From a virus (taxonomy: Duplodnaviria; Caudoviricetes): DNA of 64,000 nucleotides. Numbering within the stretch: the first letter of the stretch is position 1; every line of letters begins with the position of its first letter. The notes below the pieces were generated by a model. It saw only the letters and a program-made list of their open reading frames with translations. It made no database searches and was not told where the DNA came from. A program made the translations under genes and the position numbers. The stretch spans positions 128,001 to 192,000 of IMG/VR virus record IMGVR_UViG_3300001525_000584, one strand, 5' to 3'. Shown one piece after another: positions 13,423-48,013 of this stretch.

Positions 13423-13899
13423 GTGGAGGACAAAGTTGTGTATAAATTATATACCTGCGGTAACTGTGAAAACATTTTTCAAAGAAAAGAAGGTGAAGAG
13501 GTTCTATATGCTTTTGAAGAACCTATGTGTTGTCCTGAATGTAGAGAATCTTTTATTTTGAAAAAGACTTTTGGCAGAGAAGATAAATATATTAATGTAA
13601 AAGACTTTAATACTTTTGTTGTTTATAATCCGCGTGAACCGGATGCAAAAGTAAAAGATATCAGGGCATTTTTAAACACTGCTGATTATTATTTAGATAA
13701 AATGCCTGCTTCAGCAGTTAAATCGGACGAACAGGGGCGTTGGATTTTATCACCGGAATGGAACGTTGTATCATGCTCTAAATGCTCCTGGGTAGCGCCT
13801 TTTGTGGAACTTGTTACAAGAGATTTTAAATTTTGTCCTAATTGCGGGGCACATATGATTGAAAAGGAGGAAACAAATGATATCCTGGGAAACCAATGA
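13423..13899 (+). CDS. Double Zn-ribbon phage protein
   Basis: CGNC..CCPEC at the N-terminus; CSKC..FCPNCGAHM at the C-terminus. Confidence 0.65.
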   Translation: MEDKVVYKLYTCGNCENIFQRKEGEEVLYAFEEPMCCPECRESFILKKTFGREDKYINVKDFNTFVVYNPREPDAKVKDIRAFLNTADYYLDKMPASAVKSDEQGRWILSPEWNVVSCSKCSWVAPFVELVTRDFKFCPNCGAHMIEKEETNDILGNQ

Positions 13900-14575
13900 T
13901 CCCATGCAGTGGGCGGAGAATGAAGTAGCGCTACTTCTCGATTCTCGAAGGTCTTTGAATAATGATGAAGCGGATGACTGGGAAAATCAGTATTTTGAGG
14001 CTTGTTGCCTCAGCGCTTTAAAAGCCTATAAAGTTTTATTTGAGGATGATCACTCTGGTATGAGTTGGAACATCACTGCAAATATATTGAAGAGATTATT
14101 AGAGGATAAGCCTTTGTCACCAATTACTGGGGCAGACTTCGAAGACGCTTCAGATATTCTAGATTCTCCTGAATGGCTGCATCAAATGGGCCTCGTTTCT
14201 GCTACTCCCTGTACTCGCATGCGCGGACTATATAGATATACGTATAAAAATGACGTAGTAGAATATAAGGACATTAATCGCACAGTAATTTATGCCGAAG
14301 GCAGTGACGTCCCCTGGCGTAACTCATATATTAGTAACATCGTAGACGAACTTTATCCGATAAAAATGCCTTACGCCGGAGAAAAATATATTGCATATGT
14401 TAAAGAGGATAAATCAGTTTCTTGTCGAGAAGATTATGACTGTTTTATTTTTAAATCACTGAAGCATCCTGATGGTACCATGGAGACCATTAATCGATTT
14501 TTCATAGATGTGGGGAACGGTGGTTGGCTGGAGGTCAGTGAATCTGCATATAATAAATTTCTTGGAGGAAAATGA
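13877..14575 (+). CDS. Phage hypothetical protein
   Basis: ATG after GGAGG; WAENEV..SALKAY..HSGMS..PLSPI. Confidence 0.7.
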   Translation: MISWETNDPMQWAENEVALLLDSRRSLNNDEADDWENQYFEACCLSALKAYKVLFEDDHSGMSWNITANILKRLLEDKPLSPITGADFEDASDILDSPEWLHQMGLVSATPCTRMRGLYRYTYKNDVVEYKDINRTVIYAEGSDVPWRNSYISNIVDELYPIKMPYAGEKYIAYVKEDKSVSCREDYDCFIFKSLKHPDGTMETINRFFIDVGNGGWLEVSESAYNKFLGGK

Positions 14576-18172: not shown

Positions 18173-18181
18173 TGCTAAATT
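18173..18181 (+). promoter_or_regulatory. GCTAAATT late-promoter-like motif
   Basis: TGCTAAATT upstream of the holin-like genes. Confidence 0.65.
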
Positions 18182-18259: not shown

Positions 18260-18718
18260 ATGACAGATGAATTTTTACGCTGGTTGTTACCTATTGTAGC
18301 TGCTGCCGTAATTAGTGCTGTTGTTCCCTGGATCGTAAATAGTACGATTAAAAAAAGTTTAAAGAATCAGGAACTATTAAAGCAATTAGAAGCAAAAAAA
18401 GAAGAAGAAAAAAGAACAGCACAGTTAGAAAAACTTCTAAATGAAAAATTAGATCCCATTAAAGCAGAAGTAAACATCATCAAAGAAGAAGTGACAAAAA
18501 ACAAAGATGGAACTGTAACGCTTTTAAGAGAACGCATGGAACAGTCTCATGATCGTTTTGTCAGAAAAAAATGTATCTCCGCAAGTGAATTAGCCAACTG
18601 GCGACATTTGTATAATACATATGAATGGCTGGGCGGAAACCATTTTAGAGAATACGTCGATGAGTGGAAAACAGATATAGAAACTTTACCTCGCGACGTA
18701 GATAATAAAAAAGAATAA
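18260..18718 (+). CDS. Holin-associated membrane protein
   Basis: N-terminal TM helix, coiled coil, LY..Y..LGGN motif. Confidence 0.6.
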   Translation: MTDEFLRWLLPIVAAAVISAVVPWIVNSTIKKSLKNQELLKQLEAKKEEEKRTAQLEKLLNEKLDPIKAEVNIIKEEVTKNKDGTVTLLRERMEQSHDRFVRKKCISASELANWRHLYNTYEWLGGNHFREYVDEWKTDIETLPRDVDNKKE

Positions 18719-18744: not shown

Positions 18745-19086
18745 ATGAATTTTAGTCAAATTTGTGATCTAGTTATTGCGATTTGCGGCATTATCCCAAC
18801 AGTTGTTGCTGTAGTGATGTTAATTAGAAACATTATTAAAGAAAAGAACTGGAAACTAGTAGAAAAAATTATTTTATCTGCTATGTCTGCCGCAGAAGAA
18901 TATGCAAAAGAACATCCAGAGATGTCTAGTGAAGAAAAACTAGATTTTGCTTTAGCTGCTGTTACGGGCGGTGCTCATGCAGCAGGCATCACTATAGACG
19001 AAGAGCTATTAAAGAAAATCGTAGCGTATATAGAACAGATGTGTTCTTGGTCCAAAACTGTTAACGTAGAGCCGGAGAGCCAATAA
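18745..19086 (+). CDS. Phage holin, LL-H-like
   Basis: One N-terminal TM helix; AMSAAEE...EKLDFA...IE pattern. Confidence 0.6.
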   Translation: MNFSQICDLVIAICGIIPTVVAVVMLIRNIIKEKNWKLVEKIILSAMSAAEEYAKEHPEMSSEEKLDFALAAVTGGAHAAGITIDEELLKKIVAYIEQMCSWSKTVNVEPESQ

Positions 19087-19831
19087 ATGAAGATTTTAAT
19101 TGGAACTAATAAAGCTCTAAAAACTCCTTCAGGCAAGGTATTATCCATGGGGGGGGGGCGGTGAAACACCTCAGGGTTATCAGCTGATCGTAACCGAAGA
19201 ATTTGAGGGTGGAACTTTTTCCATTATCTATGCTGATGGTACTGCGGCTACAGTACCTGCAGGTACTTACCAAAACGTGGTTACCATCACAGATCACACT
19301 CCCAACAACTCTAATGAAAAGTGGAACATTAATGGCAGCATGCCTAAACTGCCTTTTACATTAACTGCTAATAGTACTGCATATATCTATAGTTCTTGTT
19401 TAACTGGAGATATGCTTATAACTCTTGCTGATGGTTCTCAAAAGCGTGTCGATCAACTGGCTTTAACTGATAAAGTTCTTTCTTGGAACCCTGATACGAT
19501 GCAGCTTGAAGCAGATGAGATCACCTATACTGACAGTGCAGAAAACAAAAAGCACACTGAGTATGACGTTTGGACATTTATTGATGGAACTGTTATTAAA
19601 ACGGTACATCGGCACAGACTGTATAATGTAGAACGCCAGGCCATGATCTATATGGATGAGTGGCAAATTGGTGAACATGCCCTTAATATCGATGGTGAAT
19701 ATGTAGAACTAATCACGCATGAAAATATTAAAGAAGTGATACAACACTATACTCTATTCACAGGGAACCAGAATTATTTCGTTAATGGACTGTTATCAGG
19801 AAACAGGTACACAAAGGAGATACACCTATAA
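19087..19831 (+). CDS. Tag cassette gene 1: N-terminal tag, beta domain, Hint domain; out of frame at G10
   Basis: MKILIGTNKALKTPSGKVLSMGGG then stop at 19164; G9 joins it to the open frame GETPQGY...CLTGDMLITLADG...NYFVNGLLSGN. Confidence 0.75.
19149..19158 (+). repeat. Poly-G tract (G10), candidate phase-variation switch
   Basis: atGGGGGGGGGGcgg. Confidence 0.85.
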
Positions 19832-20166
19832 TGGCTTATACATTAACCTTCACGGATGGCTTCGACTGTCGAATTAATGGGACGAGTGTTAGTAGTCCTT
19901 ATACTCTTAAAGATGATGACTATATACGTGTGTATTCTAGTTTTGCTAAGTTTACTGTTAATGGCACTGTGTATAACTACGCCGTTACAAATGAGATCAC
20001 TATTATTAATGAAGATATCATAATAGATAAAAGTGGTTTTGTTCCTTCTACATCAGAGACGGGTATTTATACGCGCATTCGTTTCGGCATTAAAGAAACA
20101 CTAAAGGTTTTATCAACAGGAGAAAAGCCCCTGAAAACGACCTCTGGAAAACTTCTGGTAAATTGA
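19831..20166 (+). CDS. Tag cassette gene 2 (C-terminal tag)
   Basis: Ends LKVLSTGEKPLKTTSGKLLVN; body resembles gene 3. Confidence 0.75.
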   Translation: MAYTLTFTDGFDCRINGTSVSSPYTLKDDDYIRVYSSFAKFTVNGTVYNYAVTNEITIINEDIIIDKSGFVPSTSETGIYTRIRFGIKETLKVLSTGEKPLKTTSGKLLVN

Positions 20167-20186
20167 TTGGAAACTTATTGAAAAGT

Positions 20187-20268
20187 CTCTCCTCCGTATA
20201 TCGGGGGGGGGACATAATTTTAAAAATAAACATTTTTCTCCCGATATTCAAAAATATTAAGAGGAGAG
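20187..20268 (+). promoter_or_regulatory. Intergenic RNA hairpin containing a G9 tract and pairing with GAGGAG
   Basis: ctctcctc pairs with gaggagag; atatcG9a pairs with tttttctcccgatat using five G-U pairs. Confidence 0.55.
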
Positions 20269-20284
20269 TGAAAACCAAATTTTT

Positions 20285-20665
20285 ATGAAACTTTTGGCAA
20301 CAAAGGAAAAAATTTTAAAAACAAATACGGGAAAAATTCTGTATAGAAAAGATTCTTCTAATAAGCAACATACTTTAACTTTTTCAGGAATTGGTACTGT
20401 AACAGTAAATGGAAAAACTGTTACTAGTGGCTATTTACTAGAAGCAGGAGATGTTATAGTTGCAACACCTCTTTTGGCAAGTGGAAAACCTGATAAAATA
20501 GGACCGAATAGTGTTTCAGTTAACGGAACATGGTATGACTGTCCTAATACAGTTTCTGTAAATGCAGGAGATGTAGAATTAATTTTATTAGCCGCTACTG
20601 CAGATCCTAATGATGGCGGCGGAGAATCATTAACAATAAACTATACGGGCTTTATGCCTGGCTAA
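20285..20665 (+). CDS. Tag cassette gene 3 (N-terminal tag)
   Basis: Starts MKLLATKEKILKTNTGKILY. Confidence 0.75.
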   Translation: MKLLATKEKILKTNTGKILYRKDSSNKQHTLTFSGIGTVTVNGKTVTSGYLLEAGDVIVATPLLASGKPDKIGPNSVSVNGTWYDCPNTVSVNAGDVELILLAATADPNDGGGESLTINYTGFMPG

Positions 20666-20679
20666 TGGAGATATTATAA

Positions 20680-21440
20680 ATGCCACCTATAACATCAACC
20701 CTGCGGGGGGGGAGTTTCATTTTTGTGCCCTGAATAATTTTTATAATAGTACATATTATGGGAGCCCCACTGCTGATTCTATAATATATTTATGTGTTTA
20801 TAATAATGAATGGACACAGTCCCTTAATTTCGTAAGCAACGGGGTGCAGTATGATGCTATTCATATTATTGCAAGCACAAGCACCCCTAGCAACCGCAAA
20901 ATGTGGTATGTAGCTAACGGGGTTGAAACTTTAGTGCATCATAACAATTTATGGGCGTTAGAGGCTTATAAAACAATAACTTATGAAACGCAAAATGTAC
21001 GCGAAGGCATAAGCGGCTTGCTGGACGTCACATCAAGTTACTGCAGTGGTGGCTTTCCTGCTCCGGCCGGCACTTATAAAGTTCTCGCACCTTTAGCTTC
21101 TGTAGGAGTTTTACATGCTTTTGTGTTTTCAAATTTCGAAAGTCACGGAGACGTCTTTAATTCTATAGACTGGAGCCTAGGTACAACAGCATCGCCCCAA
21201 GCTACTGTGCGTTACACAGGGCCTTCAGTAAACGATACTTATACTCATGTTACAGTATATGAAGAGGGTTGGCTCGATCCTAGATATCAAATTATAACGA
21301 TACCACAGGGTGTATACATGTCGCCGAACACCGAAGACTTCTTCAGTGAACGACTAATCCCTTTTCAACGTAACTTTATTGCCTTATCTTCGAATAACAA
21401 AATTTTAAAAACAAACTCAGGAAAAATTATAATTAAATGA
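20680..21440 (+). CDS. Tag cassette gene 4 (C-terminal tag); out of frame at G8
   Basis: SD GGAG and ATG 20680, MPPITSTLRGG; G9 joins it to the open frame EFHFCAL...VQYDAI...NKILKTNSGKIIIK. Confidence 0.75.
20705..20712 (+). repeat. Poly-G tract (G8), candidate phase-variation switch
   Basis: ctgcGGGGGGGGagt. Confidence 0.85.
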
Positions 21441-21784
21441 TAAAGTTATCTAAAAATCATTCAGGATTGCAATTCTTTGCGGGCGCTATTGGATACCCTA
21501 TACATATCACGCTTAACGGTGCTGCGGAGTCTTTTTATTGTGTTGCAGCCTCTTGGTTGGATAATTCTAAGGACATATCTCCGGATTATCCACTGCCATA
21601 TACCTGCACCATTAATAAGGTTATATGGTCAGATAATGCTATTCTCGTTTATAATGGTACGGATGTTTTACCCTCAGATAATATTATAGATGATGGTACT
21701 TATACTACACGCGCAGATACAAAAGTATTAAAACAGGGAAACAAGATCCTTCAAAGTAAAATTGGAAAACTTCTTATAAAGTAA
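21437..21784 (+). CDS. Tag cassette gene 5 (LQFFA leader, C-terminal tag)
   Basis: MIKLSKNHSGLQFFA...KVLKQGNKILQSKIGKLLIK. Confidence 0.8.
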   Translation: MIKLSKNHSGLQFFAGAIGYPIHITLNGAAESFYCVAASWLDNSKDISPDYPLPYTCTINKVIWSDNAILVYNGTDVLPSDNIIDDGTYTTRADTKVLKQGNKILQSKIGKLLIK

Positions 21785-21796
21785 AAAGGAGAATAT

Positions 21797-22150
21797 ATGC
21801 CAGAAAATATAATCACACATGCTCCTCCTATAGCTATTACTTTTATAATATATGTAAATGGCTCTAAAGTATCTTTTGGAGCTACAGGTACCTCGAGCGA
21901 TCGGACCTGGCAGACGAACTGGGATTATTTTGGTGACTACTGGGCTCCTTCACAAGTACCTTATACTTTAACCGATACGAATGTTGTCTGGGAAAATAAT
22001 TCTATATTAGTTTATAATGACATAGATGTGTTACCTACTGATTCTATGATTCATGAAGGTAACTATACAACACGGAAAATAGACCAAAAAATATTAACAA
22101 CAAACAACAAAATTCTAAAAGATAAATCAGGAAAAACACTTATTATATAA
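21797..22150 (+). CDS. Tag cassette gene 6 (C-terminal tag)
   Basis: Ends KILTTNNKILKDKSGKTLII. Confidence 0.8.
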   Translation: MPENIITHAPPIAITFIIYVNGSKVSFGATGTSSDRTWQTNWDYFGDYWAPSQVPYTLTDTNVVWENNSILVYNDIDVLPTDSMIHEGNYTTRKIDQKILTTNNKILKDKSGKTLII

Positions 22151-22168
22151 AAAAGAAAAGAGGGATTC

Positions 22169-23137
22169 ATGATAAGATTATCTAAAAAATATAGTGGTTT
22201 ACAGTTCTTTGCTCCTGAAGATCACTATATTAATGTAAATGGCTCTTCAGTGCAAATTTATTTAAGCACCTCTTATAATGCAACGTGGCTAGATAACGCA
22301 AACTATTTAACTAATCCTTCTCTTTATAAAATAGTAGATGATAAAGTCATGTGGTATAATAGTGTTATTCTTCAGTATAAAGGTGTAGACGTTTCTCCAA
22401 CAGATTTTATTCACGACTATGAAGATTATACAACCAGAGCTACTGATGAAACATGGGTTTTGAAGTCAAGTGGCATGACCGCTCCGGATAACGCAATTGA
22501 TACAGCAATAAATTTTAAAAATGCTGCCGGAGATGCTTTTACTCGGATTAATATTTATGCGGAGGGCAAAGGGCTTCATATCTCTTATTATAATGGAACA
22601 GAGGAAACCTTTGCATGCTCGGGAGGAGACGGCGTTACAGGTTCTAATGCAACTATAACATTTTTAACATCCCCTACGGGCGATTTATTAGAGTGGTTGC
22701 AGGCAAATGGAACAAAACAACAGGAAACGTTAACACCAGTGTTGAGTGCAGGAACTTATAAGTGGGCCGACATTTTGGGCAATATGCCTGCTAGTACTGA
22801 TTTTTTTGATATAAAAATTAATTTTACCAGCAATAATAACAACTATAGCGCATTAGGTGTTTACTCTGACGGTATCAAATTGCCTGTGGTTAAGCTTCGC
22901 TATGTCGCATCTGATGATTCTACTACGGCTTATAATGAAGGAGACTGGGTAGTCGATTCTTATCAGACCCTTATCATAGTAGAAGATCAGCAAGTATCAC
23001 AAGCGTTTTACAACTGGGCGATTACGGGTGGAAACTTAGTTAAACAAACAACTTCAAGTGCTCCAAAACTTATGTCTTTTGGTGGAAAATATTTCAAAAC
23101 GAGTTCAGGAAAATATTTAGCACCACCACAGAACTAA
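22169..23137 (+). CDS. Tag cassette gene 7 (LQFFA leader, three domains, C-terminal tag)
   Basis: MIRLSKKYSGLQFFA...KLMSFGGKYFKTSSGKYL. Confidence 0.8.
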   Translation: MIRLSKKYSGLQFFAPEDHYINVNGSSVQIYLSTSYNATWLDNANYLTNPSLYKIVDDKVMWYNSVILQYKGVDVSPTDFIHDYEDYTTRATDETWVLKSSGMTAPDNAIDTAINFKNAAGDAFTRINIYAEGKGLHISYYNGTEETFACSGGDGVTGSNATITFLTSPTGDLLEWLQANGTKQQETLTPVLSAGTYKWADILGNMPASTDFFDIKINFTSNNNNYSALGVYSDGIKLPVVKLRYVASDDSTTAYNEGDWVVDSYQTLIIVEDQQVSQAFYNWAITGGNLVKQTTSSAPKLMSFGGKYFKTSSGKYLAPPQN

Positions 23138-23186
23138 TTTTCATATATAGAAAAAGAACATTAAATTTTTAAAATGGAGGCAAAAA

Positions 23187-23810
23187 GTGGCAGGTTATAA
23201 AACAACTGTTTACTGGGACGAAGGTATTGAAAAAATGTTTTGGCATGATGATAATGAATCCGCCTGGTTGGAGATAGCCCAAAGTGGTACTACAGTTTCT
23301 TATGGTGCAGGATTAGCTCTTAAACCCCAGTTTAAAGATGGTTATGAACTGTCCGAAGTACCCAGTGGTGTTGTTGCTTCTGCAGATGAAGGCATTTATT
23401 ATGCAACAAATTTATCTTCAGTTTCTTTTTCCTCCACATTAATCTCAGTGACTTATACCCTAGCCGCAGGTACATATAAATGGGTAGATAATCCTTATGT
23501 TACTATCGATGCTGATGAAAATATAAGTTTCATCTCTGCTGAACAAACTTTTTCCCGCTTATTGATACGTTCGGGCGCCCGATATAGCATTAAATACGAT
23601 TCAGAAGGGGCTTATCAGGAACCCCTTTCCTCCTGGTTTGATCCCCGATATCAAATTATCACCTTAGAATCTGATCAAACTGTTTCAGAAGAATTTTATA
23701 CCTGGGCCATCACTGGAAAACAACTCATACCTCAAACAACCCAAATAAAGCTTATATCTACAGGCAATAAATATTTTAAAACAAAGTCTGGAAAATATTT
23801 ATCTCTATAA
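23187..23810 (+). CDS. Tag cassette gene 8 (C-terminal tag)
   Basis: GTG after GGAGG; ends KLISTGNKYFKTKSGKYLSL. Confidence 0.8.
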   Translation: MAGYKTTVYWDEGIEKMFWHDDNESAWLEIAQSGTTVSYGAGLALKPQFKDGYELSEVPSGVVASADEGIYYATNLSSVSFSSTLISVTYTLAAGTYKWVDNPYVTIDADENISFISAEQTFSRLLIRSGARYSIKYDSEGAYQEPLSSWFDPRYQIITLESDQTVSEEFYTWAITGKQLIPQTTQIKLISTGNKYFKTKSGKYLSL

Positions 23811-23920: not shown

Positions 23921-23952
23921 AAAGCCTCTAAAATATAGAGGCTTTTCTTTTT
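23921..23952 (+). terminator. Intrinsic terminator
   Basis: aaagcctcta-aaata-tagaggcttt followed by a T run. Confidence 0.8.
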
Positions 23953-24001: not shown

Positions 24002-25336
24002 ATGAAAACTCTAATTCACTTTTCAGAATTTATAGATTTATTAGCTCAAAATAATAGTTCTTTATATAAACAGGACATTCTAAAATCTTATAAAGATGAT
24101 GAAGTTGTTAAATATTATTTGAATTATATTTTTAATCCTTACTTAATCACAGGCATAGGTGCAAAGAAACTAAAAAAGGCAACAGATGAATTCTGCGGAC
24201 TCTTCGCTGGTACAGAACAAAACGGTACTGTAAAAGATTTATTAGAGTTTATTTTACAGAATAATACAGGCACAGATAAAGTTTTGCAAGAAGTGGCAGC
24301 TTTTAAAGAAACTTTATATACAAAATACTATGCATACGGGGCAGAATATTTAGGACATTTTTTAACGCTTTTAGACCGTATTATAACTAAAGATGTTAAA
24401 CTCGGAGTAAATGTAAAGACGATAAATAAATGTATGGATAATTTTCTCCCTGAATTTAATGTGCAACTAGCGAATAAATATTTTGACGATCCTTCTCGTA
24501 TAGAAGGAAAAGAATTTGTATTAACAACAAAAATAGATGGCTGTAGGATTATTGCATTAAAAGAAAATGGTAAAGTTTCTTTTTATAGTCGCCAGGGCCA
24601 GGTTTATGAAGGCTTAGTTGATCTTGAAGAAGAGATGCTGGAAAAAATGCCTGATAACATTTGTTTAGATGGAGAATTAACTCTTTTGGATGCTTCAGGC
24701 TTAGACAGTAAAAATCAGTATAAGCAAACCATTAAACTCTGCAGAAAAGATGGAGTGAAACATGGTCTGAGGATGTTGGTTTTTGACTGCATGGCTGTAA
24801 AACAGTTTAGAGATCAGAACTGTGAAACACCTTATACCTCACGCAGAGAAACTTTAGAACAAATTTTTAATTCAGCATTTTTCACTTATTTTAAACTGTT
24901 GCCTATTTTATATAAAGGAACAGATACTTCTTTAATCACATACTGGTTAAATAAAAATGTTTTCGCAGGAGAAGAAGGTGTTATGATTAATGTGTGTGAT
25001 GCACCTTATCATTTTGATCGAAGCTGGGATTTACAAAAAGTAAAGAAAATGAACTCTTATGATTTACAAATTATTGGCTTTGAAGAAGGCACAGGAAAAT
25101 TTGTAAATACTTTAGGTGCTATTCTTTGTAAATATAAAGATGGAAACGTCGTAAAATGTGGTTCTGGTTTTGATATCCCAACCAGAGATTTGATTTGGAA
25201 AAATAAAGAGAACTATATGAATAGAGTCGCAGAGATTCAGTATTTTGAAGAAACGGTAAATCAAAATGGAGGAGCTTCTTTACGTTTTCCTGTTTTCATC
25301 GATATTAGAGATGATAAAAATATTGCAGATTTTTAA
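24002..25336 (+). CDS. lig: ATP-dependent DNA ligase
   Basis: KIDG (motif I), LDGEL, VFD, EGVM, KVK, C-terminal OB fold with SLRFPVF..IR.DK. Confidence 0.95.
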   Translation: MKTLIHFSEFIDLLAQNNSSLYKQDILKSYKDDEVVKYYLNYIFNPYLITGIGAKKLKKATDEFCGLFAGTEQNGTVKDLLEFILQNNTGTDKVLQEVAAFKETLYTKYYAYGAEYLGHFLTLLDRIITKDVKLGVNVKTINKCMDNFLPEFNVQLANKYFDDPSRIEGKEFVLTTKIDGCRIIALKENGKVSFYSRQGQVYEGLVDLEEEMLEKMPDNICLDGELTLLDASGLDSKNQYKQTIKLCRKDGVKHGLRMLVFDCMAVKQFRDQNCETPYTSRRETLEQIFNSAFFTYFKLLPILYKGTDTSLITYWLNKNVFAGEEGVMINVCDAPYHFDRSWDLQKVKKMNSYDLQIIGFEEGTGKFVNTLGAILCKYKDGNVVKCGSGFDIPTRDLIWKNKENYMNRVAEIQYFEETVNQNGGASLRFPVFIDIRDDKNIADF

Positions 25337-27900: not shown

Positions 27901-28428
27901 ATGAACGTTTATTTAGCTGGACCTATTTTTACTGAACGTGATCGGATGTATTTAGATTATCTCTATGAGCATCTGGTCTCTATTCTCCCCGAAGACACTT
28001 CTATTTATGTACCGCATCGTAATAAATCTATTAATGATAAGACGAAGTGCGCAACTTCATACGACGTATACTGGGGTGATTATAATAGATTAAAGGAAAC
28101 AGATCTTTTAATCGCAGTAGTCAGTGGTGACATGCCTCCGATCGGAACAACTTGCGAAATTGGGATCTTTACCCAGATGATTGATGCAGATCCGCATAAA
28201 AAACTTTTCTGCCTTTATGATGATTGCAGAGAAGGTTATATGACATGTCAGGGCGATGTGGGGCAACAGAAACTTGCAGCTATGCAAAAAGAACCTGGAG
28301 AAAATCAGATGAGTTATATCAACATTTTCTTAACAGGAGCTATTAAGACACATGGCAAACTGGCCTGCACCAGTGAAGAACTCTTTAAGATGTTGGCAGA
28401 AGAATATAGGAGTAACTATGGCAAATAA
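27901..28428 (+). CDS. Nucleoside 2-deoxyribosyltransferase family protein
   Basis: VYLAGPIF, YVPH, D...D.LIA, GTTCEIG. Confidence 0.85.
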   Translation: MNVYLAGPIFTERDRMYLDYLYEHLVSILPEDTSIYVPHRNKSINDKTKCATSYDVYWGDYNRLKETDLLIAVVSGDMPPIGTTCEIGIFTQMIDADPHKKLFCLYDDCREGYMTCQGDVGQQKLAAMQKEPGENQMSYINIFLTGAIKTHGKLACTSEELFKMLAEEYRSNYGK

Positions 28429-29692
28429 TAAGTTACTCTATGATATTAATGATAAGCCTAAAAAGTGGTATGAATGGATTATTTATCCGCTGCAACAGGT
28501 TTTTGCAGTATTCGTAGCAACTGTATTAATCTCTAATATTTGTGGTACGCCAGTCAGTTCTTGTTTATTTGGAGCAGGTTTAGGAACCATTATTTATCAG
28601 ATTATCACCGGCTTTAAATCACCTATGTTCATCAGTTCGTGTGGAGCTACGGTGAGCGCTGTTTGCGGTGCTTTGGCTTTAAATGAAACAGGTGATAATT
28701 ATTTAATGGTGTGCTGCGGCGGACTTATTATTTTACTTATCTATGCTATTTTCGCTTTTGTCGTAAAGAAGCTGGGCATGGAGGCTCTTAATAAGATTTT
28801 CCCTCCTTCGATCGTTGGTGCTGTGACGATGGTCATCGGATTAAATCTAGCCACTTTTATTTTCAGTTATGTAAACGGCGATTCAGCATCGGGCACTGTT
28901 CCTGTAGTACCAACTTTAATAGCTATTTTCACCATGTTAATAGCAGCGTTAACTGCACATTATGGAAAAGGCTTTTTGAAGAATATCCCTTTTCTTATTG
29001 CTTTAATTGCAGGATATATTTTGGCTCTATGTTGCGGTAAAGTTTCTTTTGATGCTTTTTCTAATTTACAGTGGTATCCTGACTTTACTTTTCTAAAGTG
29101 GTCCACTGAGGACTGGTCTTTAGTTAACTTAGGTAAAACAACACTATATTTTGTTCCGGTAGCTGTTTGTGCTTTATTAGAGCATTATAGTGATCATAAA
29201 GTTTTATCTAATATTATTGGAACAGATTTAACAAAAACACCTGGGCTGCATAAAACGCTTTTAGGTGATGGTGTGGCTTCAGCTGTAGGCGCTGCAGTAT
29301 GTGGTTTGCCAAACACTTCTTATGGCGAAAGCATTGCAACAACAGGATTTTCTAGAGTGGCTTCAACAGCTGTTATCACAGTAGCTGCTTTAATTATTAT
29401 GGCATTATCTTTTATAGCACCTGTTGGAGCTTTTATTCAAACCATCCCGTCCTGTGTCTTTGGTGGATGTGCTATGATTTTATATGGTTATATCGCATCA
29501 TCGGGACTGAAGACATTAGTAAATAATAAAATCGATTTAGAGAACACAAAAAATCTAATTATCGTATCTGTAGTATTAACTGTAGGCGTTAGTGGTATTT
29601 ATTTATTTGATGCAGCTTTTGCTGGAGTTTCTTTAGCCATGGTATTAGGCATGATTCTAAATCTGATTCTAAGAGATAAAAAGACTGTATAA
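28418..29692 (+). CDS. NCS2-family nucleobase permease (UraA/PyrP-like)
   Basis: Many TM helices; LEHYSDH, LLGDG and PNTSYGES..SRVAS signatures. Confidence 0.9.
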   Translation: MANNKLLYDINDKPKKWYEWIIYPLQQVFAVFVATVLISNICGTPVSSCLFGAGLGTIIYQIITGFKSPMFISSCGATVSAVCGALALNETGDNYLMVCCGGLIILLIYAIFAFVVKKLGMEALNKIFPPSIVGAVTMVIGLNLATFIFSYVNGDSASGTVPVVPTLIAIFTMLIAALTAHYGKGFLKNIPFLIALIAGYILALCCGKVSFDAFSNLQWYPDFTFLKWSTEDWSLVNLGKTTLYFVPVAVCALLEHYSDHKVLSNIIGTDLTKTPGLHKTLLGDGVASAVGAAVCGLPNTSYGESIATTGFSRVASTAVITVAALIIMALSFIAPVGAFIQTIPSCVFGGCAMILYGYIASSGLKTLVNNKIDLENTKNLIIVSVVLTVGVSGIYLFDAAFAGVSLAMVLGMILNLILRDKKTV

Positions 29693-33160: not shown

Positions 33161-36100
33161 ATGGCGAATATACCAAATAAATTTCCTAATATATCCGGCA
33201 GTATTTCGAGCCACGGCAGTGTTACTGGGTCTATATCTTCAGGTGGGGGCACTAGTGACCACAACAGGCTAAAAAATAGAGATTTAGCCGATCAGCACCC
33301 TATAGAAGCTATAACAGGCTTACAGGATTTATTAGACAGTAAAGTATCTGAAGATGAGATTTTACCTCTTATTAACGATGCAGCAAAAAGTAAAGCGCGG
33401 GGCTTATACTATGATGCGCGTGGAGAATTATCCAGAGATAAAAAATCATACTGGTATTTAACTTCTGATATAGATGCTATTACGAAGCAGGGAACTAAAG
33501 AATCTGTTATCTCAGGCCCTTATAACTTAGGAGCAGGCGGTGGTGGATCGAGCCCGAGCATCACAACAGTTACTTTAACTAAAGTTACCTGGCCTACTAA
33601 TGTATCTGTAGGCGGAGAATGTATCGTTACTATAAACTGGACTTCTATTAGAGATGATCAGCCTACAGGTCGTGGTACTATTCAGTGTTTTAATAATGGA
33701 AAACTTATTGAAACAAAAACCGCAGCTCAGGGAAACGTTTCTTTTGATTTAACCTCTTCTATTATATCTGGTGAAAATAAAATCGAATTCAAAGTAACGG
33801 ATGCTTATGGCAGCTCTAAAAACTTAATAGATATCATTACAGGCATCTCTTTACTTTTAACATCTTATTTTGATGCTAATGCAGAGTTTTCAGGCCCTAT
33901 AGCCTATATCTATACACCTTTTGGTGATATAGCAAAAACGATGCATTTTATTTTAGACGGCGCAGAGTTACCGGGTTCAGAGATTATCACAGCTTCTGGT
34001 GAACAGCAAACAAAAATTATATCTGCACAAGCACATGGCAGTCACACTTTACAGGTATATTTTACAGTAACTATAGAAGGTGAAGAGATTAAATCTAATG
34101 AGCTATATTATGATTTAATTTGCTTTGAAGAAGGTGATTTAACACCTATAATCGCATCTACTTTTATTAACGACTCTGAACATGAACAGTATATACCCTT
34201 TAACGTAGTGTATAGAGTTTATACGCCAGGACAAAATAATTCTAATGTTTATTTGTATGTAGATGGTGTTCCTGTTTATACAGATGAATATGGAAACCCC
34301 TCTTATATCAACGTAGATAAAAATGAGCAGAGCTGGGAGGTTTCTTCAGATGTTATAGGAAACCACACTCTGCAAATAGTTTCAGGCAGTGCTGAAAAAT
34401 CATTTACTTTTCATATTTATAAAAGTACCGTAGATGTAACCCCGGTAACGGATTCTTTGGAACTTTATTTAGGAACAGAAAATCGTAACAACCAGGAGCC
34501 CTTAGAAAAAAGAAAACAGTGGAACTATACAGGAACTAGTGGTACCATAGAAGGCTCTTTAGAGAATTTTAACTGGCAGTCAAATGGCTGGGTTCTAGAT
34601 GATGAAAATAAAACTGTTTTGAGATTATCCGGGGATGCTCGGGCAACTATTCATTTTAAACCTTTTTCAAAAGATTTTACAAACACAGGTAAAACTATAG
34701 AATTTGAGATTGCAACACGCGATGTAAAAGATTATGAAGAACGAATCATCAGTTGTTTGGATGGTGCAGATTCTATAAGTCATTCTATAAACTATGCAGG
34801 AGAAGATACACGTACTAAAAAGTTTATAGTAACAAATATATCTTTAGATTCTTTTGCAGAAGCTGTTCAAAGCACTAAAGGCACTTATGCGTTTATTTAT
34901 AATAATGGTCAGTGGAACCTAAATGATGATTATTATAGTACAGAAGATTTAACATCTGTTTTTGGCATCTCTATAGAAACGCAGGACTTAGACCCCGATA
35001 ATACAACTGAAACAGAATACTTTTTAGATAATGATCGTATTTTAATTTATTATGTTGTTTCAGGACGTGGTTTTTATATCACGCCACAAATAGCACGTTT
35101 ACAGTCTCAGGCAGCTTCTTTATCGACGCAGTATAAAGAAGATGATAAAGTGCGTATCTCTTATGTTGTTGAAAAGTCAACTTATGGGACACGCCTGATG
35201 TTCATGTATATTAACGGCATTTTATCTGGTGTCAGTAGATACAGTGAAACAGATTCATTTGCACAAACACCTGCACAGGAGATCGTATTAGGATCAAACA
35301 AAGCGACTTTAGATGTATATAATATCAGAATTTATAATAACGATTTAACGCGTAGACAAATAGTTAATAACTGGATCGCAGATACAAAAGATGCAGCTCT
35401 AAAAGCTCAGAGATATAGGCATAACGATGTTTATAATAATGAAACAGGACAAATCACTAAAGAGAAAATTTTAGCTATAGGTAACATCCCTTATTTAACT
35501 TTAGAAGGTGATGATTTACCGAAGCAGAAAAAAGATCGTAAATGGATGAGTATCTCTTATGTGGATCCAGTATATTCAGATCGAAGCTTTACAGCAGATG
35601 ATGCACGTGTAGATGTGCAAGGAACTTCTTCACAGTATTATTATAAAAAGAATTTTAAAATTAAATATGAAAATGGTTTCTATGATAATAATCTGAACTG
35701 GTCTGAACATTATAAGCTCAGAGGTGAGGATTCTAAAAAAGAGAAAACATTTACCTATAAAGCCGATGTTGCTTCTTCAGAAGGTGCTAATAACGTTGTA
35801 CTGGTTCGTTATTTTGAAGATTCTAAAAACTGGTTTTCACCGCCAGAGATGGAACCCGATGAAGATTTAGGTACTTCTGATTCTAAAAAGAGAATTAGAG
35901 TTGGTATAGACGGTTTACCTATAGTTGCGTTCCACCAGGATAAGTTCTATGGTAAAATGAACTTTAACAACGATAAAGGAAACAGTCGTACTTATGGCTT
36001 TACAGACGGAGATGAGTGCTGGGAGTTTTTGCATAACTCTTCAAACTTAGTATTATTTAAAACGGATGATTTAGAGTCTATAAATCCTGCAACAGGTAAA

Positions 36101-39100
36101 AAGATGTGGGAGGAGTCCTTCGAATCTCGTTATCCTGAAGAAGCAGGTTCTGATGATCACCCCTATGGACAAAATCCTGGAGAGTTAGATCGACTGAAAA
36201 AAGTATTAACTTATGTTTCTTCTACGTATAGAAACGATACAGACTCTGCAGAATTAAAACAGGCAAAGTTAAATAAATTCAGAGCTCTATTCATGGATGA
36301 TCCTTCAGTGGATGCCGATATTCATTTTGATTTAACTTCAACACTTTTCTATTATCTTTATACAGAGTTATTCTTAATGGTTGACTCCCGAGCTAAAAAT
36401 GCTATGTTATGTTGGTATACAGAGCGTACAGGCGGAGACGGTAGAAAATATGGAAACAAATGGTACTGGATCCCCTACGATATGGATACAGCGCTAGGCA
36501 TTAATAACGAAGGCTTATTAGTATATAACTATGATAAAGAAGATACAGACCTTCAGGAGGGCATGTATATCTTCAACGGTCAGGATTCAGCATTCTGGCA
36601 AAACGTCAGAGATGCCTTCACTACTGAGTTATTTGCTATGTATAGTGATTTACGTAGTAACAACGTAGGTCGTGAGATTTGGAGCTTTGATGTTGCAGAA
36701 AAGTATTTTGAAGATCATCAGGCTATTTGGAGTGAAAATATTTTCAACGAAGATGCTTATACAAAATACTTAGAGCCTTATGTGTTAAATAAAGACGCAA
36801 CTTATTTAGGTATGGCTCAGGGCTCTAAAATGCAACAACGTAGATGGTGGATGTATAACAGATTTAAATATCTGGATTCTAAATATCGTTCAGGCGATGT
36901 AAAGAATAATGCGATCACCATTCGCGCATATAATACAGTAGGACAAAAATTTGAGATAGTACCTTATACAAACTGTTATATGACGGGTAACTTCTGGGAG
37001 ATACCTGTTACTAAAAAAGCCGAAAAGGGTAAAGTCGTAGAGATCGAGTCACCCAGTGCTGCAACAGGTACAGATGCTGTTATTAACGTATATCCTGCTG
37101 ACTGGATTCAGGATTTAGGTGATATATCATCTTTTATGCCGGGCTATGCAGATTTTTCAAAAGCTACAAAGTTGCAGAGACTGATTATAGGTAACGCTTC
37201 ACCCACGTTTCAAAATGGTAACTTAAAAGGTTTGAATGTCGGTGCAAATAAATTATTAACCTATTTAGATGCTAGAAACTGCCAAAACCTAGGTACCACA
37301 GAAGGATCCGAGGCAACACCTACTATAGACTTAAAAGAATGTTTAAGCATCGAAGAAGTTTATTTTGAAGGTACACAGATAAAGGGTGTAACGTTTCCGA
37401 ATGGTGGTAACTTAAAAGTAGTACATTTACCCAACACTATAACACAGTTAACTATTCGAAACCATCCCAACCTAAAAGAAGTTAGTATAGCAGGAACTCA
37501 GAATTTAACGAGTTTGTGGCTAGAAGATATACCTTCTTCTGTAGTTAATCCTTATAAATATATTATGAACATGCCTGATGGATCTCGTATTCGTTTGATA
37601 AATGTTCAGGATACTTTTAAGAGTATAGACGGAAAAACTGCAGCAGACCAAATCAGTGAATTTTATGATAAGCTCGATAAAATGGTTGGTTATGATGCCA
37701 GAGGCGCTAGTGTTGATAAAGCTCAGATCACAGGTACTTTATATGTAGATTTTATGAACTATAAAGACTGGTCTATATTATCTGTACGTTATCCTGAGGT
37801 TGTTATTAAATCTATTAGTGGTAAAGATATTATATGCACTGTTAAGTTTTATAATTATGTGTCGGGTGAAACAGATGATTTTACTCTTTATACATCCCGT
37901 CAGTGTTCTTTAGATACTATTTTGTCTGGAGAACCTGTTGAAGATCCTGCAAGAAAATCTTCTATAGCTTTAGATTATCATTTTGAACGTTGGTATGTTA
38001 TAGAAGATGGCCGCCAGGTTACTTTCGATCCTAGGGCAACTGTTATAACAAAAGATTTTGATGTATATCCTGAATATTCAACCACAGCACGCCAGTACAC
38101 AGTTAAATTTGAAAAGCAAACTGATATAGCTTCTATAGTAGTAACGCCTGAAGAAGAAGTTGTAGATTATAATACTTTAATCACAGAACCTGCTGTAACA
38201 GGCGTTCCAGAAGATTTGAAGTTCCATGGTTGGCATACAGTTGAAGGTACGCACTGGTATTTTGATAAAGACAAAATCCTTAAAGATATGGTTTTATATG
38301 CATACTGGGAGGAAACAAACGTTCCTACAGTAGACCTTAGTACTATAATTAATTGCAACACTTTTGAAGCGCACTGTACGGATAATGTAGGTATAACAGG
38401 ATGGGCTGTAACACATTCTGAAGAAGAACCTACATCATGGAACTTAATAGTACCGGCGCAAAGAGTATTTGTAAAACAGTATAGTATCACAACACCTGAA
38501 TTATATTATTTTTGGGTCAGAGATAATGCATCACCTGAGTATAAAAAAGCTTTTGCCCATGTTCAGGGATTATCACTTACGAAGCAACCAGGCACAGGAG
38601 TAGATAATATAACACTGTATTATAAGAATCCCGATGATACTTTTGAGCCTGTTGATACTACCGCAGTATTCTTTAATTCAACAGTTAAGATAAAATCCAC
38701 TTTAGATTCACATTATGAAAACTTAACTCTATATTTAAATGATCGTGTTATAGAAAATGATTCTGAACAGGTTATTATAGAGAATACTGTTATTAAAGCT
38801 GTTTGCACACCTAAAAATTATACCGTAAAATTTGATTTAGGTGAGTTCTGGGAAAAGAACATACCTGATCAAATTCGACCTTATAAAACATTAGTTGAAG
38901 AACCTGAAAAGCAAATAGTAGGTGGATTTGTTGTAGAAGGTTGGTATAAAGTTAAAGATGGAGATACTTATACAGGTAAATGGGATTTTGCAAAAGATGT
39001 AGTTGAAGGTGATACTATTCTTTATGCAAGATGGACTGATACTGTAGGGTCAACCACTTTGGATATAGACGTTGCAGAAGATTCTACAGAAGTTACTCTG

Positions 39101-40453
39101 AGTTATTATCAGAGTGTTTCAAATGGCATCACTGTTAACTGGGGCGATGGAGCAAGAGAAACTTCTGAAGAAAAAGGCAATTTATCTTTAACACATACTT
39201 ATTCAGCAGCAGGCAGTTATATTATATCTTTTGAATATAGTAGCGGACTTTACTGGCTGGGTATAGATAATGCAAATATACCTGTATTACAACCTATAAC
39301 ATTATTAAAGAATGTAACTTTTGCTAACAACACAACGGCTACGGGTGCTTATGCATTTAAAGGTGCGACGGGATTAACGCAGGTTACTTTATCCCCTTAT
39401 ATGAGAAGAGTTGCTGCAGGAGCCTTTTTCGACTGTATAAATTTACAAAAGATCACTATGTACTATGGTATCACTTCTATAGAAGTTGGTTCTTTTGCTG
39501 GATGTACTTCTTTAAGAGATGTGGCTTTACCTGAAGGTTTATATAGTATAGGCAACGAAGCATTTTCAGGATGTTTGAACCTTAATATAACTTCATGGCC
39601 AAAGAGCTTGAGGCGTATAGAGGGAAAAGCATTTTTGTCATGTGATCGTATAGAAGAACTAACTTTAGATGATTTTGATAACTTAGGTCCTTCTGCTTTT
39701 GCAGGATGCGACGCTCTAAAGAAGGTTACTTTAAGCAACATCAGATCTATGGAGGAAAAAGTTTTTGTTAACTGCTCCGCCTTAGAAAAAGTCATTATAT
39801 TAGACGATACAGTACAACCTAAGTTTGCTTTTGAGGACTGTCCTAAGTTAATAACTGCGGGACCTTTAAATAGTGGTTGTAACATAGAGTTTAATTGGTT
39901 CAAGAAAATCCCTGCAGATGCCTTTGCATGTTCTTATGGAGCTTTGAGTGCGGTAACAACAGTTACTTTACCTGATAATATAACAGAATTAGACTCTGGA
40001 GTATTTTCAAATAGTAACATTCAAAATGTAAATTTGGATAATATTATCACATGGGGCGTTGGAGTATTTTCAGGCTGTAAAAAGTTTAATCTTAATAGTT
40101 TCCCAAAGAAAATGACTTATATACCTACTAATACTTTTAGTAGATGTACAGCTTTAAGAGGCTGGGATCTAAATGATGGATTAGGCTATAGAATAGTTAT
40201 ACCTGCAACAGTTAGTTCCATAGGTAACAACGCATTTTCACACTGCGGTTCTTTAGTAACTTTACATGTACGTACACAAAACAGCGATAATAAAATTAAC
40301 TCTTTTGATAATGCATGGGCATATATGGGCAACCCTGATATGACTATTCACGTACACAGTAACTTAGAAGATGTCACAGAAGCTTACGGACCCTATTTTA
40401 ACTACTGGAACGCAGAAGATTCACGTCAACTAAAAGTTATAAAAGATTTATAA
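33161..40453 (+). CDS. Giant tail/adhesin protein: Ig-like, LamG-like, CotH-kinase-like, LRR, InlB B-repeats, PKD-like, BspA-type LRR
   Basis: VQGTSSQYY.KKNFKI, MVDSRAKN, YDMDTALG; W.F....V..D..LYA.W repeats; I...AF.GC..L repeats. Confidence 0.75.
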   Translation: MANIPNKFPNISGSISSHGSVTGSISSGGGTSDHNRLKNRDLADQHPIEAITGLQDLLDSKVSEDEILPLINDAAKSKARGLYYDARGELSRDKKSYWYLTSDIDAITKQGTKESVISGPYNLGAGGGGSSPSITTVTLTKVTWPTNVSVGGECIVTINWTSIRDDQPTGRGTIQCFNNGKLIETKTAAQGNVSFDLTSSIISGENKIEFKVTDAYGSSKNLIDIITGISLLLTSYFDANAEFSGPIAYIYTPFGDIAKTMHFILDGAELPGSEIITASGEQQTKIISAQAHGSHTLQVYFTVTIEGEEIKSNELYYDLICFEEGDLTPIIASTFINDSEHEQYIPFNVVYRVYTPGQNNSNVYLYVDGVPVYTDEYGNPSYINVDKNEQSWEVSSDVIGNHTLQIVSGSAEKSFTFHIYKSTVDVTPVTDSLELYLGTENRNNQEPLEKRKQWNYTGTSGTIEGSLENFNWQSNGWVLDDENKTVLRLSGDARATIHFKPFSKDFTNTGKTIEFEIATRDVKDYEERIISCLDGADSISHSINYAGEDTRTKKFIVTNISLDSFAEAVQSTKGTYAFIYNNGQWNLNDDYYSTEDLTSVFGISIETQDLDPDNTTETEYFLDNDRILIYYVVSGRGFYITPQIARLQSQAASLSTQYKEDDKVRISYVVEKSTYGTRLMFMYINGILSGVSRYSETDSFAQTPAQEIVLGSNKATLDVYNIRIYNNDLTRRQIVNNWIADTKDAALKAQRYRHNDVYNNETGQITKEKILAIGNIPYLTLEGDDLPKQKKDRKWMSISYVDPVYSDRSFTADDARVDVQGTSSQYYYKKNFKIKYENGFYDNNLNWSEHYKLRGEDSKKEKTFTYKADVASSEGANNVVLVRYFEDSKNWFSPPEMEPDEDLGTSDSKKRIRVGIDGLPIVAFHQDKFYGKMNFNNDKGNSRTYGFTDGDECWEFLHNSSNLVLFKTDDLESINPATGKKMWEESFESRYPEEAGSDDHPYGQNPGELDRLKKVLTYVSSTYRNDTDSAELKQAKLNKFRALFMDDPSVDADIHFDLTSTLFYYLYTELFLMVDSRAKNAMLCWYTERTGGDGRKYGNKWYWIPYDMDTALGINNEGLLVYNYDKEDTDLQEGMYIFNGQDSAFWQNVRDAFTTELFAMYSDLRSNNVGREIWSFDVAEKYFEDHQAIWSENIFNEDAYTKYLEPYVLNKDATYLGMAQGSKMQQRRWWMYNRFKYLDSKYRSGDVKNNAITIRAYNTVGQKFEIVPYTNCYMTGNFWEIPVTKKAEKGKVVEIESPSAATGTDAVINVYPADWIQDLGDISSFMPGYADFSKATKLQRLIIGNASPTFQNGNLKGLNVGANKLLTYLDARNCQNLGTTEGSEATPTIDLKECLSIEEVYFEGTQIKGVTFPNGGNLKVVHLPNTITQLTIRNHPNLKEVSIAGTQNLTSLWLEDIPSSVVNPYKYIMNMPDGSRIRLINVQDTFKSIDGKTAADQISEFYDKLDKMVGYDARGASVDKAQITGTLYVDFMNYKDWSILSVRYPEVVIKSISGKDIICTVKFYNYVSGETDDFTLYTSRQCSLDTILSGEPVEDPARKSSIALDYHFERWYVIEDGRQVTFDPRATVITKDFDVYPEYSTTARQYTVKFEKQTDIASIVVTPEEEVVDYNTLITEPAVTGVPEDLKFHGWHTVEGTHWYFDKDKILKDMVLYAYWEETNVPTVDLSTIINCNTFEAHCTDNVGITGWAVTHSEEEPTSWNLIVPAQRVFVKQYSITTPELYYFWVRDNASPEYKKAFAHVQGLSLTKQPGTGVDNITLYYKNPDDTFEPVDTTAVFFNSTVKIKSTLDSHYENLTLYLNDRVIENDSEQVIIENTVIKAVCTPKNYTVKFDLGEFWEKNIPDQIRPYKTLVEEPEKQIVGGFVVEGWYKVKDGDTYTGKWDFAKDVVEGDTILYARWTDTVGSTTLDIDVAEDSTEVTLSYYQSVSNGITVNWGDGARETSEEKGNLSLTHTYSAAGSYIISFEYSSGLYWLGIDNANIPVLQPITLLKNVTFANNTTATGAYAFKGATGLTQVTLSPYMRRVAAGAFFDCINLQKITMYYGITSIEVGSFAGCTSLRDVALPEGLYSIGNEAFSGCLNLNITSWPKSLRRIEGKAFLSCDRIEELTLDDFDNLGPSAFAGCDALKKVTLSNIRSMEEKVFVNCSALEKVIILDDTVQPKFAFEDCPKLITAGPLNSGCNIEFNWFKKIPADAFACSYGALSAVTTVTLPDNITELDSGVFSNSNIQNVNLDNIITWGVGVFSGCKKFNLNSFPKKMTYIPTNTFSRCTALRGWDLNDGLGYRIVIPATVSSIGNNAFSHCGSLVTLHVRTQNSDNKINSFDNAWAYMGNPDMTIHVHSNLEDVTEAYGPYFNYWNAEDSRQLKVIKDL

Positions 40454-46306: not shown

Positions 46307-46672
46307 GTGGCTGTTATAACTAGTATTCAGTTTAAAAGAGGCCGTGAAGAGGCTCTTGATAAATGGACCGCAATACCATTGGCTGGGGAACCTATTTTCG
46401 ATTTAGATAACTCTATATTAAAAATAGGAGATGGCATTCACACTTATAGAGAATTAAAAGCTATAGGCGGTGAGGGTGGTGGCGGTTTACAGCAAATAGT
46501 TTTTGATACTTATTTTAATTTTCCTAGTGTGGGAAAAATAAATATTCTATATATAGCTAAAGACAAACAAATGGCTTATATATGGGATGATTCAGACAGC
46601 TCTAATGCTAAATATGTAGAGATCGGTTTTGCCGGTGATTCTATAGATGGCGGCGGAGCAGCTTCATTTTAA
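46307..46672 (+). CDS. Mtd-N-like tail protein
   Basis: IQFKRG..AGEP..LKIGDG. Confidence 0.65.
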   Translation: MAVITSIQFKRGREEALDKWTAIPLAGEPIFDLDNSILKIGDGIHTYRELKAIGGEGGGGLQQIVFDTYFNFPSVGKINILYIAKDKQMAYIWDDSDSSNAKYVEIGFAGDSIDGGGAASF

Positions 46673-47999: not shown

Positions 48000-48013
48000 G
48001 GAGAAAATAAATA

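Follow-up and report, generated by a model that had tools for sequence, protein, structure and literature searches.

The closest described counterparts of the locus reported here are the secondary receptor-binding proteins (RBPs) that carry conserved N-terminal docking peptides, as in the phages K1E, K1-5 and SP6, with their gp37 adaptor, in G7C, where gp63.1 docks on gp66, and in the Klebsiella KP32, KP34, Menlow and PhiK64-1 groups (PMC6872550). In these systems, the peptides dock onto a branching domain of the T4 gp10 type, and in G7C the docking of gp63.1 on gp66 is electrostatic, through a positively charged surface (PMC6872550); N-terminal docking peptides of RBPs have also been validated experimentally (PMC13352976). 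Here, we describe an array of eight consecutive, co-oriented genes for small beta-sandwich proteins (19087-23810, plus strand) in a 64,000-nucleotide stretch of the genome of an uncultured, gut-type phage (Caudoviricetes), hereafter the window, each of which carries the same lysine-rich, 18-residue peptide, the tag, at one end or the other. The window comprises bases 128001-192000 of a 217,629-bp virus record (IMG/VR IMGVR_UViG_3300001525_000584), which has direct terminal repeats, is rated complete and has a G+C content of 35.5%. Tentatively, we favor the view that the tag is a position-independent docking or assembly peptide for fiber-associated binding modules.

The array shares with these RBP systems a short conserved peptide on otherwise different proteins (7-11 residues or longer in the RBPs, where it serves one common structural site); as in the branched systems, several such genes are arrayed, up to 11 of them in PhiK64-1, and their bodies are exchanged, in the RBPs by horizontal transfer. 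The net charge of the tag, which is +3 to +5 on bodies that are themselves acidic or neutral, is likewise comparable to the positive docking surface of G7C gp63.1. However, the RBP peptides are strictly N-terminal and belong to large, trimeric and mostly enzymatic tailspikes directed at Gram-negative hosts, whereas the array tag, lysine-rich and 18 residues long, is C-terminal in six of the eight genes and is borne by non-enzymatic beta modules of 85-300 residues in a genome with Bacillota-type signals. Moreover, the array, unlike the branched RBP loci, lies outside the structural block, and a gp10-like domain was not found by sequence search. Given these differences in position, composition, cargo and host group, and the apparent lack of a gp10-like acceptor, the array is not a member of the N-terminal docking-peptide family, and its likeness to the branched RBP systems would be one of working principle.

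A second point of comparison is the cohesin-dockerin system of clostridial cellulosomes, in which one docking unit, usually C-terminal and sometimes N-terminal, mounts many cargo modules on a scaffoldin. It parallels the array in placing a single small docking unit on many cargoes, and it also operates in Bacillota; but the dockerin is a folded, calcium-binding domain of ~70 residues, whereas the 18-residue tag has no acidic calcium-binding loops, and none of the window open reading frames (ORFs) scanned encodes a cohesin-like repeat protein. More generally, Pfam, PHROGs, the PDB sequences and the GenBank phage records gave no described family that matches the tag, its use at either terminus or the module family. 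A first-pass annotation made from the nucleotide sequence alone had proposed a candidate for an undescribed system: for the tag, its either-terminus use and the module family this holds, and all three appear new with respect to the databases searched, but the proposal has to be narrowed, in that short docking peptides on RBPs are established.

The tag has the consensus K-h-L-x4-K-x-L-K-T-x-S-G-K-x-L, with K10, G17 and K18 invariant (numbering of alignment A6). Genes 1 and 3 have it at the N-terminus (19090-19143 and 20288-20341), genes 2 and 4-8 at the C-terminus (20104-20157, 21378-21431, 21722-21775, 22088-22141, 23066-23119 and 23748-23801, respectively, all on the plus strand); the copy of gene 4, IALSSNNKILKTNSGKII (21378-21431), was read directly from the sequence. 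A regular-expression scan of both the window and the whole 217,629-bp genome recovered seven of the eight copies and no other stop-free match. When a profile of the eight copies was run over the six-frame ORFs of the genome, the seven host ORFs that were long enough scored 32-37 bits against 6.7 for the best other ORF, and in leave-one-out profiles the omitted copy was always the top match outside the training set (8-30 bits). The shared terminal motif reported for these eight genes in the first-pass annotation is thus real, all eight peptides being present where it had placed them and none elsewhere in the genome.

At the DNA level, identity between the copies is only 65% per column and third positions are free, while the peptide is conserved, which points to selection on the peptide and not on a nucleic-acid site. 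We therefore hold it exceedingly improbable that the tag is the translation of a DNA- or RNA-level element, such as a recombination site, a ribosome-binding region or a regulatory sequence. The codons for its S-G-K (TCAGGAAAA) do resemble a Shine-Dalgarno sequence and lie 17 nucleotides before the start of gene 5, and the edges of the segment that is replaced between the window and a closely related contig, L004, fall at or near tags. Yet two of the copies are N-terminal, most of the downstream genes have a Shine-Dalgarno site of their own, and the cassette of gene 1 differs between the window and L004 in its tag DNA as well as in its body. The DNA divergence and the N-terminal copies led us to reject the more specific candidate, translation of a Shine-Dalgarno or recombination site. 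A degenerate DNA pattern of the tag found three matches in IMG/VR, all of which hold in-frame stops and are hence attributable to chance.

In AlphaFold2 models built with family alignments, the tags appear as low-confidence, detached tails that are unpacked against the bodies. In the model of the module B body and tag of gene 7, the predicted local distance difference test score (pLDDT) is 86-98, mostly above 90, for module B and 56-65 for the tag; in that of the module C body and tag of gene 2, it is 92-97 for the body and 42-53 for the tag. The homologous C modules of genes 2 and 3 bear the tag at opposite ends (C-terminal and N-terminal, respectively), and the eight body-tag junctions all differ and have no motif in common. 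That the tag is the only element common to the array, is conserved at the protein level, is structurally free and is used at either terminus argues for an interaction peptide read by a conserved partner. The first-pass annotation had spoken of a position-independent docking peptide: a conserved, free terminal element, found at either end, on different bodies and invariant in a second lineage (see below), is borne out, and the docking itself we infer. A complex prediction for three copies of gene 5, made with an alignment, returned a score of 0.00; it had no controls and weighs neither way on binding.

The same disordered terminal peptide could in principle be a handling signal that is read by a chaperone, protease or processing enzyme, with the mature protein lacking it, and the array genes do hold other elements of this general kind, namely Prp-type leaders in two of them (5 and 7) and, in gene 1, a Hint domain of the self-cleaving type. 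Nevertheless, a conserved cleavage motif is missing from the eight divergent body-tag junctions, neither a chaperone-like nor a protease gene is adjacent, and it would be unusual for a protease or chaperone signal to be placed at either end, all of which makes such a role, in our estimate, very unlikely. One particular form of it is the T4-type capsid targeting sequence, an N-terminal leader of ~10 residues with a prohead-protease site, by which proteins are packed into the head; this candidate is ruled out by the mostly C-terminal position of the tag and by the eight junctions that share no motif. Another known element, the triple beta-spiral shaft of the adenovirus fiber, reovirus sigma1 and PRD1 P5, is a trimer built from 15-residue repeats in tandem that have a conserved hydrophobic pattern and a Gly/Pro turn. 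Its spacing looks similar to that of the tag, which would accommodate only about one repeat, and a search of all PDB sequences with the tag profile matched no fiber protein, the best matches (E ~1) being to unrelated proteins.

The bodies to which the tag is attached had been characterized as beta-rich and otherwise variable. The former is upheld by the AlphaFold2 models, in which modules B and C both take the form of beta-sandwich-type domains, whereas the apparent variability resolves into mosaics of shared modules: alignment, phmmer searches and domain mapping show that the bodies are built from the recurrent modules A, M, B, C, D and Hint. Module A, in genes 5 and 6 and at the N-terminus of gene 7, is always N-terminal in its family and often stands behind an LQFFA-type leader; module M ends in PTGDLL.WLQANGTKQ, module B (genes 4, 7 and 8) in FY.WAITGGNLVKQ and module C (genes 2 and 3) in TINYT; and there are further N-terminal modules, one in gene 8 and another in gene 4. 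Within this genome, modules A and B are confined to the array. Gene 2 (19831-20166) thus consists of module C and a C-terminal tag, and gene 3 (20285-20665) of an N-terminal tag and a module C homologous to the gene 2 body. Gene 4 (20680-21440), which starts with MPPIT, combines an N-terminal module with two B-like modules and a C-terminal tag. Genes 5 (21437-21784) and 6 (21797-22150) each comprise module A and a C-terminal tag, preceded in gene 5 by the Prp-type leader MIKLSKNHSGLQFFA (21437-21481) and in gene 6 by a degenerate leader. In gene 7 (22169-23137), the Prp-type leader MIRLSKKYSGLQFFA (22169-22213) is followed by A, M and B and by the tag at the C-terminus; gene 8 (23187-23810), with a GTG start, has module D at its N-terminus, then module B and the C-terminal tag. 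Finally, gene 1 is split as assembled: the first frame (19087-19164), with the N-terminal tag MKILIGTNKALKTPSGKVL, stops after a G10 tract (19149-19158), and the body, a beta domain followed by a C-terminal Hint domain, is encoded in the +1 frame (19166-19831; stop-to-stop frame 19121-19831).

The Hint domain of gene 1 scores 28.2 bits in Pfam, below the cut-off of 29.7, and has the Cys-Leu-Thr-Gly start; the C-terminus of the protein resembles the Hint ends of the relatives P0052, P0075 and P0096 and of a 983-residue tail-locus protein (L006 7034-9985). In gene 1 (window 19400-19831) and its relatives, this domain may self-cleave or activate the C-terminus of the module string, in the manner of the C-terminal chaperone domains of tailspikes.

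At the sequence level, and by comparison with the published leaders (PMC5744158), genes 5 and 7 show the Prp-type pattern, an N-terminal extension of 9-15 residues that ends in a site of the type hydrophobic-Q-F-F/A, where the slash marks the predicted cleavage; the Prp-type leaders mentioned in the first-pass annotation are thus borne out. Prp F/A leaders are known on L27 and on staphylococcal phage capsid, scaffold and tail proteins (PMC5744158; PMC9405229), and thus from virion proteins that self-assemble (PMC5744158). The array is like the Prp leader system in the LQFFA-type F/A start, seen in genes 5 and 7 and many relatives, and in that the tag forms a second short terminal signal on unlike proteins; the leader, though, is hydrophobic, only ever N-terminal, predicted to be cleaved off by a protease and present in two of the eight genes, and is an element separate from the tag. 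In some relatives, module A is preceded by a domain of ~55 residues (..IIDGHA.TKEECETITLLC.., DGH..TKE.CET.TLL), carried by P0026, P0042, P0043, P0056, P0064, P0073, P0106, P0135, P0144 and the gene at L008 9305-9988; it is reminiscent of the Prp protease with its GHA...C signature, but Pfam gives no match for it.

A phmmer search with gene 7 of a library of 1.84 billion proteins recovered 328 matches at E <=0.001, of which 84 were at <=1e-10. In other phages, the modules are fused into longer proteins at tail-fiber loci. The untagged family members in the loci L005, L006 and L007 lie beside tail-fiber or distal-tail genes, with that of L005 adjoining a Phage_tail_C protein upstream of a gp13-like neck gene and those of L006 and L007 standing at the end of the tail block. 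Beyond this context, neither Pfam nor PHROGs yielded a function for any of the bodies, blastn and tblastn searches of the GenBank phage records found no relative, a related-locus search in viral contigs with gene 7 and with the DNA ligase gene downstream of the array gave no match, and a word-index search with gene 8 returned its own cluster only. Foldseek searches of the PDB with the B and C module models gave E values of at least 0.2 and no convincing relative; the best VIA-align match, to the SH3b-like wall-binding domains of endolysins (Z 4.2 over 51 residues), is too weak to use; and in the ESM Atlas, a shape search stayed at TM scores of at most 0.40 and a feature search gave no usable match. 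The matches in BFVD are uncharacterized proteins of human-metagenome viruses. Scans of the GTDB genomes with the module motifs found a single locus, in a metagenome-assembled genome of an uncultured member of the Bacilli. Taken with the strong AGGAGG-type ribosome sites and the Prp-type F/A leaders of the phage itself, this locus suggests that its host is probably a member of the Bacillota.

Several features of the surrounding genome bear on when and where the array products act. On its 5' side, the array adjoins a holin gene (18745-19086, plus strand; phrog_608), itself preceded by a gene for a 152-residue membrane protein (18260-18718, plus strand), and on its 3' side an ATP-dependent DNA ligase gene (24002-25336; phrog_114). 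The unit of membrane protein, holin and array is headed by a promoter-like motif, GCTAAATT (18174-18181, plus strand). This motif, in a tttGCTAAATT context, has 25 forward copies in the genome, nearly all of them intergenic with T-rich sequence upstream and placed 25-80 nucleotides ahead of a strong Shine-Dalgarno site and a start codon; copies also head the structural genes at 29745, 32745, 40502 and 45255, and there are none within the array. An intrinsic-terminator-like hairpin with a T run (23921-23945, plus strand) ends the array ahead of the ligase gene. The earlier description of an array that follows the motif and ends at one terminator is therefore accurate as to both elements, but it overlooked an internal terminator-like hairpin between genes 2 and 3 (20185-20213, plus strand), in which a CT-rich arm pairs with a G9 tract (20203-20211) that forms the 3' arm. 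This hairpin is followed by a weak T run and is weaker than that at 23921-23945. As the tract corresponding to this intergenic G9 is G8 in L004, its length could tune read-through into genes 3-8 and not the reading frame.

The co-orientation of the array with the holin gene behind a recurrent promoter-like motif we count in favor of the docking reading; together, the fiber-locus context of the relatives, the Prp-type leaders and the unit shared with the holin suggest, as far as can be judged from sequence, that the products act late and in association with the virion. Alternatively, the tag might, as a cationic element, anchor the products to an anionic structure of the host (teichoic acids, membrane or nucleic acid) or to a host factor. 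Their site of action would then be inside or on the surface of a cell that is infected or undergoing lysis, where they might, for instance, exclude superinfection, time lysis or serve as debris-binding decoys. The lysine-rich nature of the tags, with their three invariant residues, and the position of the array directly after the holin and before replication genes would fit such a role. Nonetheless, the body modules are found at tail-fiber or distal-tail positions in five other phage loci, and Prp-type leaders are known from structural proteins that assemble; the eight translations, inspected by eye, have no signal peptide or transmembrane segment, and no defense or anti-defense family was matched in Pfam or PHROGs. 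On balance, we consider a role outside the virion doubtful.

Direct evidence for the mobility of the modules comes from L004, a 7-kb contig from another sample whose shared segments match the window at 93-99.5% identity. Here, a single gene of 256 residues replaces genes 1 and 2; it has its own version of the tag, MKILANSKKILKSTAGKIL, a C9 tract (448-456) directly after the tag that encodes Pro-Pro-Pro, and an unrelated body. Gene 3 of L004 has an extra B module between the tag and the C module, and the material of window gene 7 is distributed over two genes, of 223 and 351 residues, with the architectures A-M'-tag and X-M-B-tag. Modules have thus been gained, lost, fused and split between the two genomes, with each product keeping exactly one terminal tag. 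The retention of the tag through these rearrangements, and its invariance in the second lineage while the bodies diversify, are what would be expected of an interaction peptide, and we likewise count in favor of the docking reading that the unrelated gene-1 body of L004 again begins with a version of the tag.

A further source of variation might be the homopolymer tracts. The genome has four runs of at least eight G residues, three of which are inside the array. In gene 1, the G10 tract separates the tag frame from the body frame, which a G9 or G12 tract would fuse. In gene 4, the true start is the ATG at 20680 (its homologues P0014, P0022 and P0125 begin with MPP[IV]T), and the frame is broken by a G8 tract (20705-20712); in L004, the tract is G9 and the gene, of 253 residues, is intact, in surrounding DNA that is 99.5% identical to the window. 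The proposal of poly-G switches thus finds its counterpart in a G10 in gene 1 and a G8 in gene 4 that are out of frame and a G9 in L004 that is in frame, though the differences in tract length may be assembly error. Hypermutable poly-G tracts were reportedly described by Sorensen and colleagues in 2021 in receptor-binding protein genes of Campylobacter phages. There, as in the array, G tracts within putative host-recognition genes set them in or out of frame, while the phage, the host phylum and the protein family differ. In many relatives of the array proteins (P0014, P0023, P0035, P0088, P0094, P0118, P0125 and P0129), GGG or GGGG comes right after the WLQANGTKQ of module M; homopolymer tracts at module junctions may thus be a general feature of the family.

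The splitting and fusing of module strings also raises the prospect that the tags bind each other, in a shared beta-sheet or an oligomeric bundle, whereby the modules would form non-covalent hetero-oligomeric fibers or bouquets that need no separate acceptor and are attached to the virion via module A of genes 5-7. Consistent with this, relatives encode in one chain the same modules that are here split with each piece tagged, and the comparison of gene 7 with the two tagged genes of L004 indicates that fused and split states interconvert; genes 5 and 6 have module A and the tag only, with nothing distal to this N-terminal-type module; and tags occur at both N- and C-termini, as end-to-end joining would need. 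But with six of the eight tags C-terminal, simple N-to-C pairing cannot serve all of them, the uniform charge of +3 to +5 disfavors self-association unless there is an acidic partner, and the second lineage has only two adjacent tag genes in each of the loci L008 and L010. We regard tag-to-tag joining as rather unlikely. It might be generalized to a universal connector, with fibers assembled non-covalently from separate, switchable modules that are joined to each other or to one hub and reshuffled by poly-G slippage and cassette exchange, an extension that we deem improbable. Among the relatives, a peptide of ~33 residues, NKLKFG..TPSKLY.G..EV.KAY.GD.LVYEK, is N-terminal in P0008, C-terminal in P0093 and P0110 and internal in P0084, and perhaps serves the shuffling system as another small, connector-like element.

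More proteins, of 213-242 residues (P0159-P0168), were retrieved with a profile built from the tagged C-termini; along with P0046, they end in PTAIKLFYHNNKLVSSKGKLLH. The 11 alleles of this second lineage are 45-96% identical overall, and their last 22 residues are invariant save for two substitutions. In L008, a 116-kb contig from the Hadza gut, and in L010, the tag gene adjoins a small gene whose product ends in a sister peptide, ..KLYSKNGKLISYKGK[MI]IK; that of L010 is only 77 residues long, with a Prp-type leader and a single small module ahead of the tag. Both tag genes of L008 and L010 are directly upstream of tail-fiber genes with an Mtd_N domain, which are 36-53% identical to window 46307-49825. 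This segment of the window (plus strand) encodes tail-fiber proteins of 121 residues, with Mtd_N (match at 46325), 418 residues and 603 residues. As the only non-module proteins common to the window and the second-lineage loci L008 and L010, they are the best candidates for the acceptor of the tag. In the same loci, a gene call of 375 residues (L008 10829-11956, L010 4288-5415) spans two ORFs of translation table 11 (123 and 150 residues) that are parted by stops, and could be due to a frameshift, read-through, an intron or an alternative code.

On the docking reading, the array would encode a repertoire of small beta-sandwich modules, with each module or short string of modules made from a separate, tagged late gene. 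The tag, unstructured when alone, would probably adopt a short beta-meander of three K-h-L strands and two tight turns as it inserts into, or lies against, one common virion acceptor, which is probably acidic and for which the tail-fiber apparatus at 46.3-49.8 kb of the window is the most plausible candidate. In this way, different binding heads could share one attachment chemistry, while the poly-G tracts of genes 1 and 4 and the frequent exchange of modules would vary which heads are made. The binding by the tag, its acceptor, the virion location of the products and their function as adhesins are all parts of the model that we infer from the genomic evidence. Several observations weigh against this model. 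First, anionic polymers of the cell wall, or nucleic acid, would be equally good partners for a lysine-rich peptide. Second, most family members elsewhere lack such a tag, which means that the modules as such do not need it. Third, the array lies between the holin and DNA ligase genes, outside the structural block and ~17 kb from the nearest Mtd_N fiber gene, and in Pfam, PHROGs and PDB sequence searches the candidate fiber proteins had no T4 gp10-like branching domain. Fourth, two of the eight genes (1 and 4) are out of frame as assembled.

If the tag is indeed a docking peptide, it would represent a compact handle of 18 residues, functional at the N- or the C-terminus, for attaching arbitrary small binding modules to phages of Gram-positive-type hosts. 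This would bear on how large gut phages diversify their host recognition, and would offer a natural template for plug-in receptor-binding engineering, which has so far been based on the N-terminal peptides of Klebsiella phages and coliphages. Whatever the mechanism, the modules constitute a sizeable family at the tail-fiber loci of gut phages, with no function in Pfam or PHROGs and no relative in the PDB, that is being shuffled between near-identical genomes.

Elsewhere in the window, a protein of 2430 residues (33161-40453), which stands behind its own GCTAAATT motif and has leucine-rich repeats of the BspA type as well as Listeria-Bacteroides repeats, is probably a giant adhesin or fiber; LRR_5 genes related to it adjoin the module gene in L005. 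The window also encodes a xanthine/uracil-type permease (28352-29692; Xan_ur_permease, E 8e-67) and a homologue of the Thoeris inhibitor Tad3 (13859-14575; E 2e-12).

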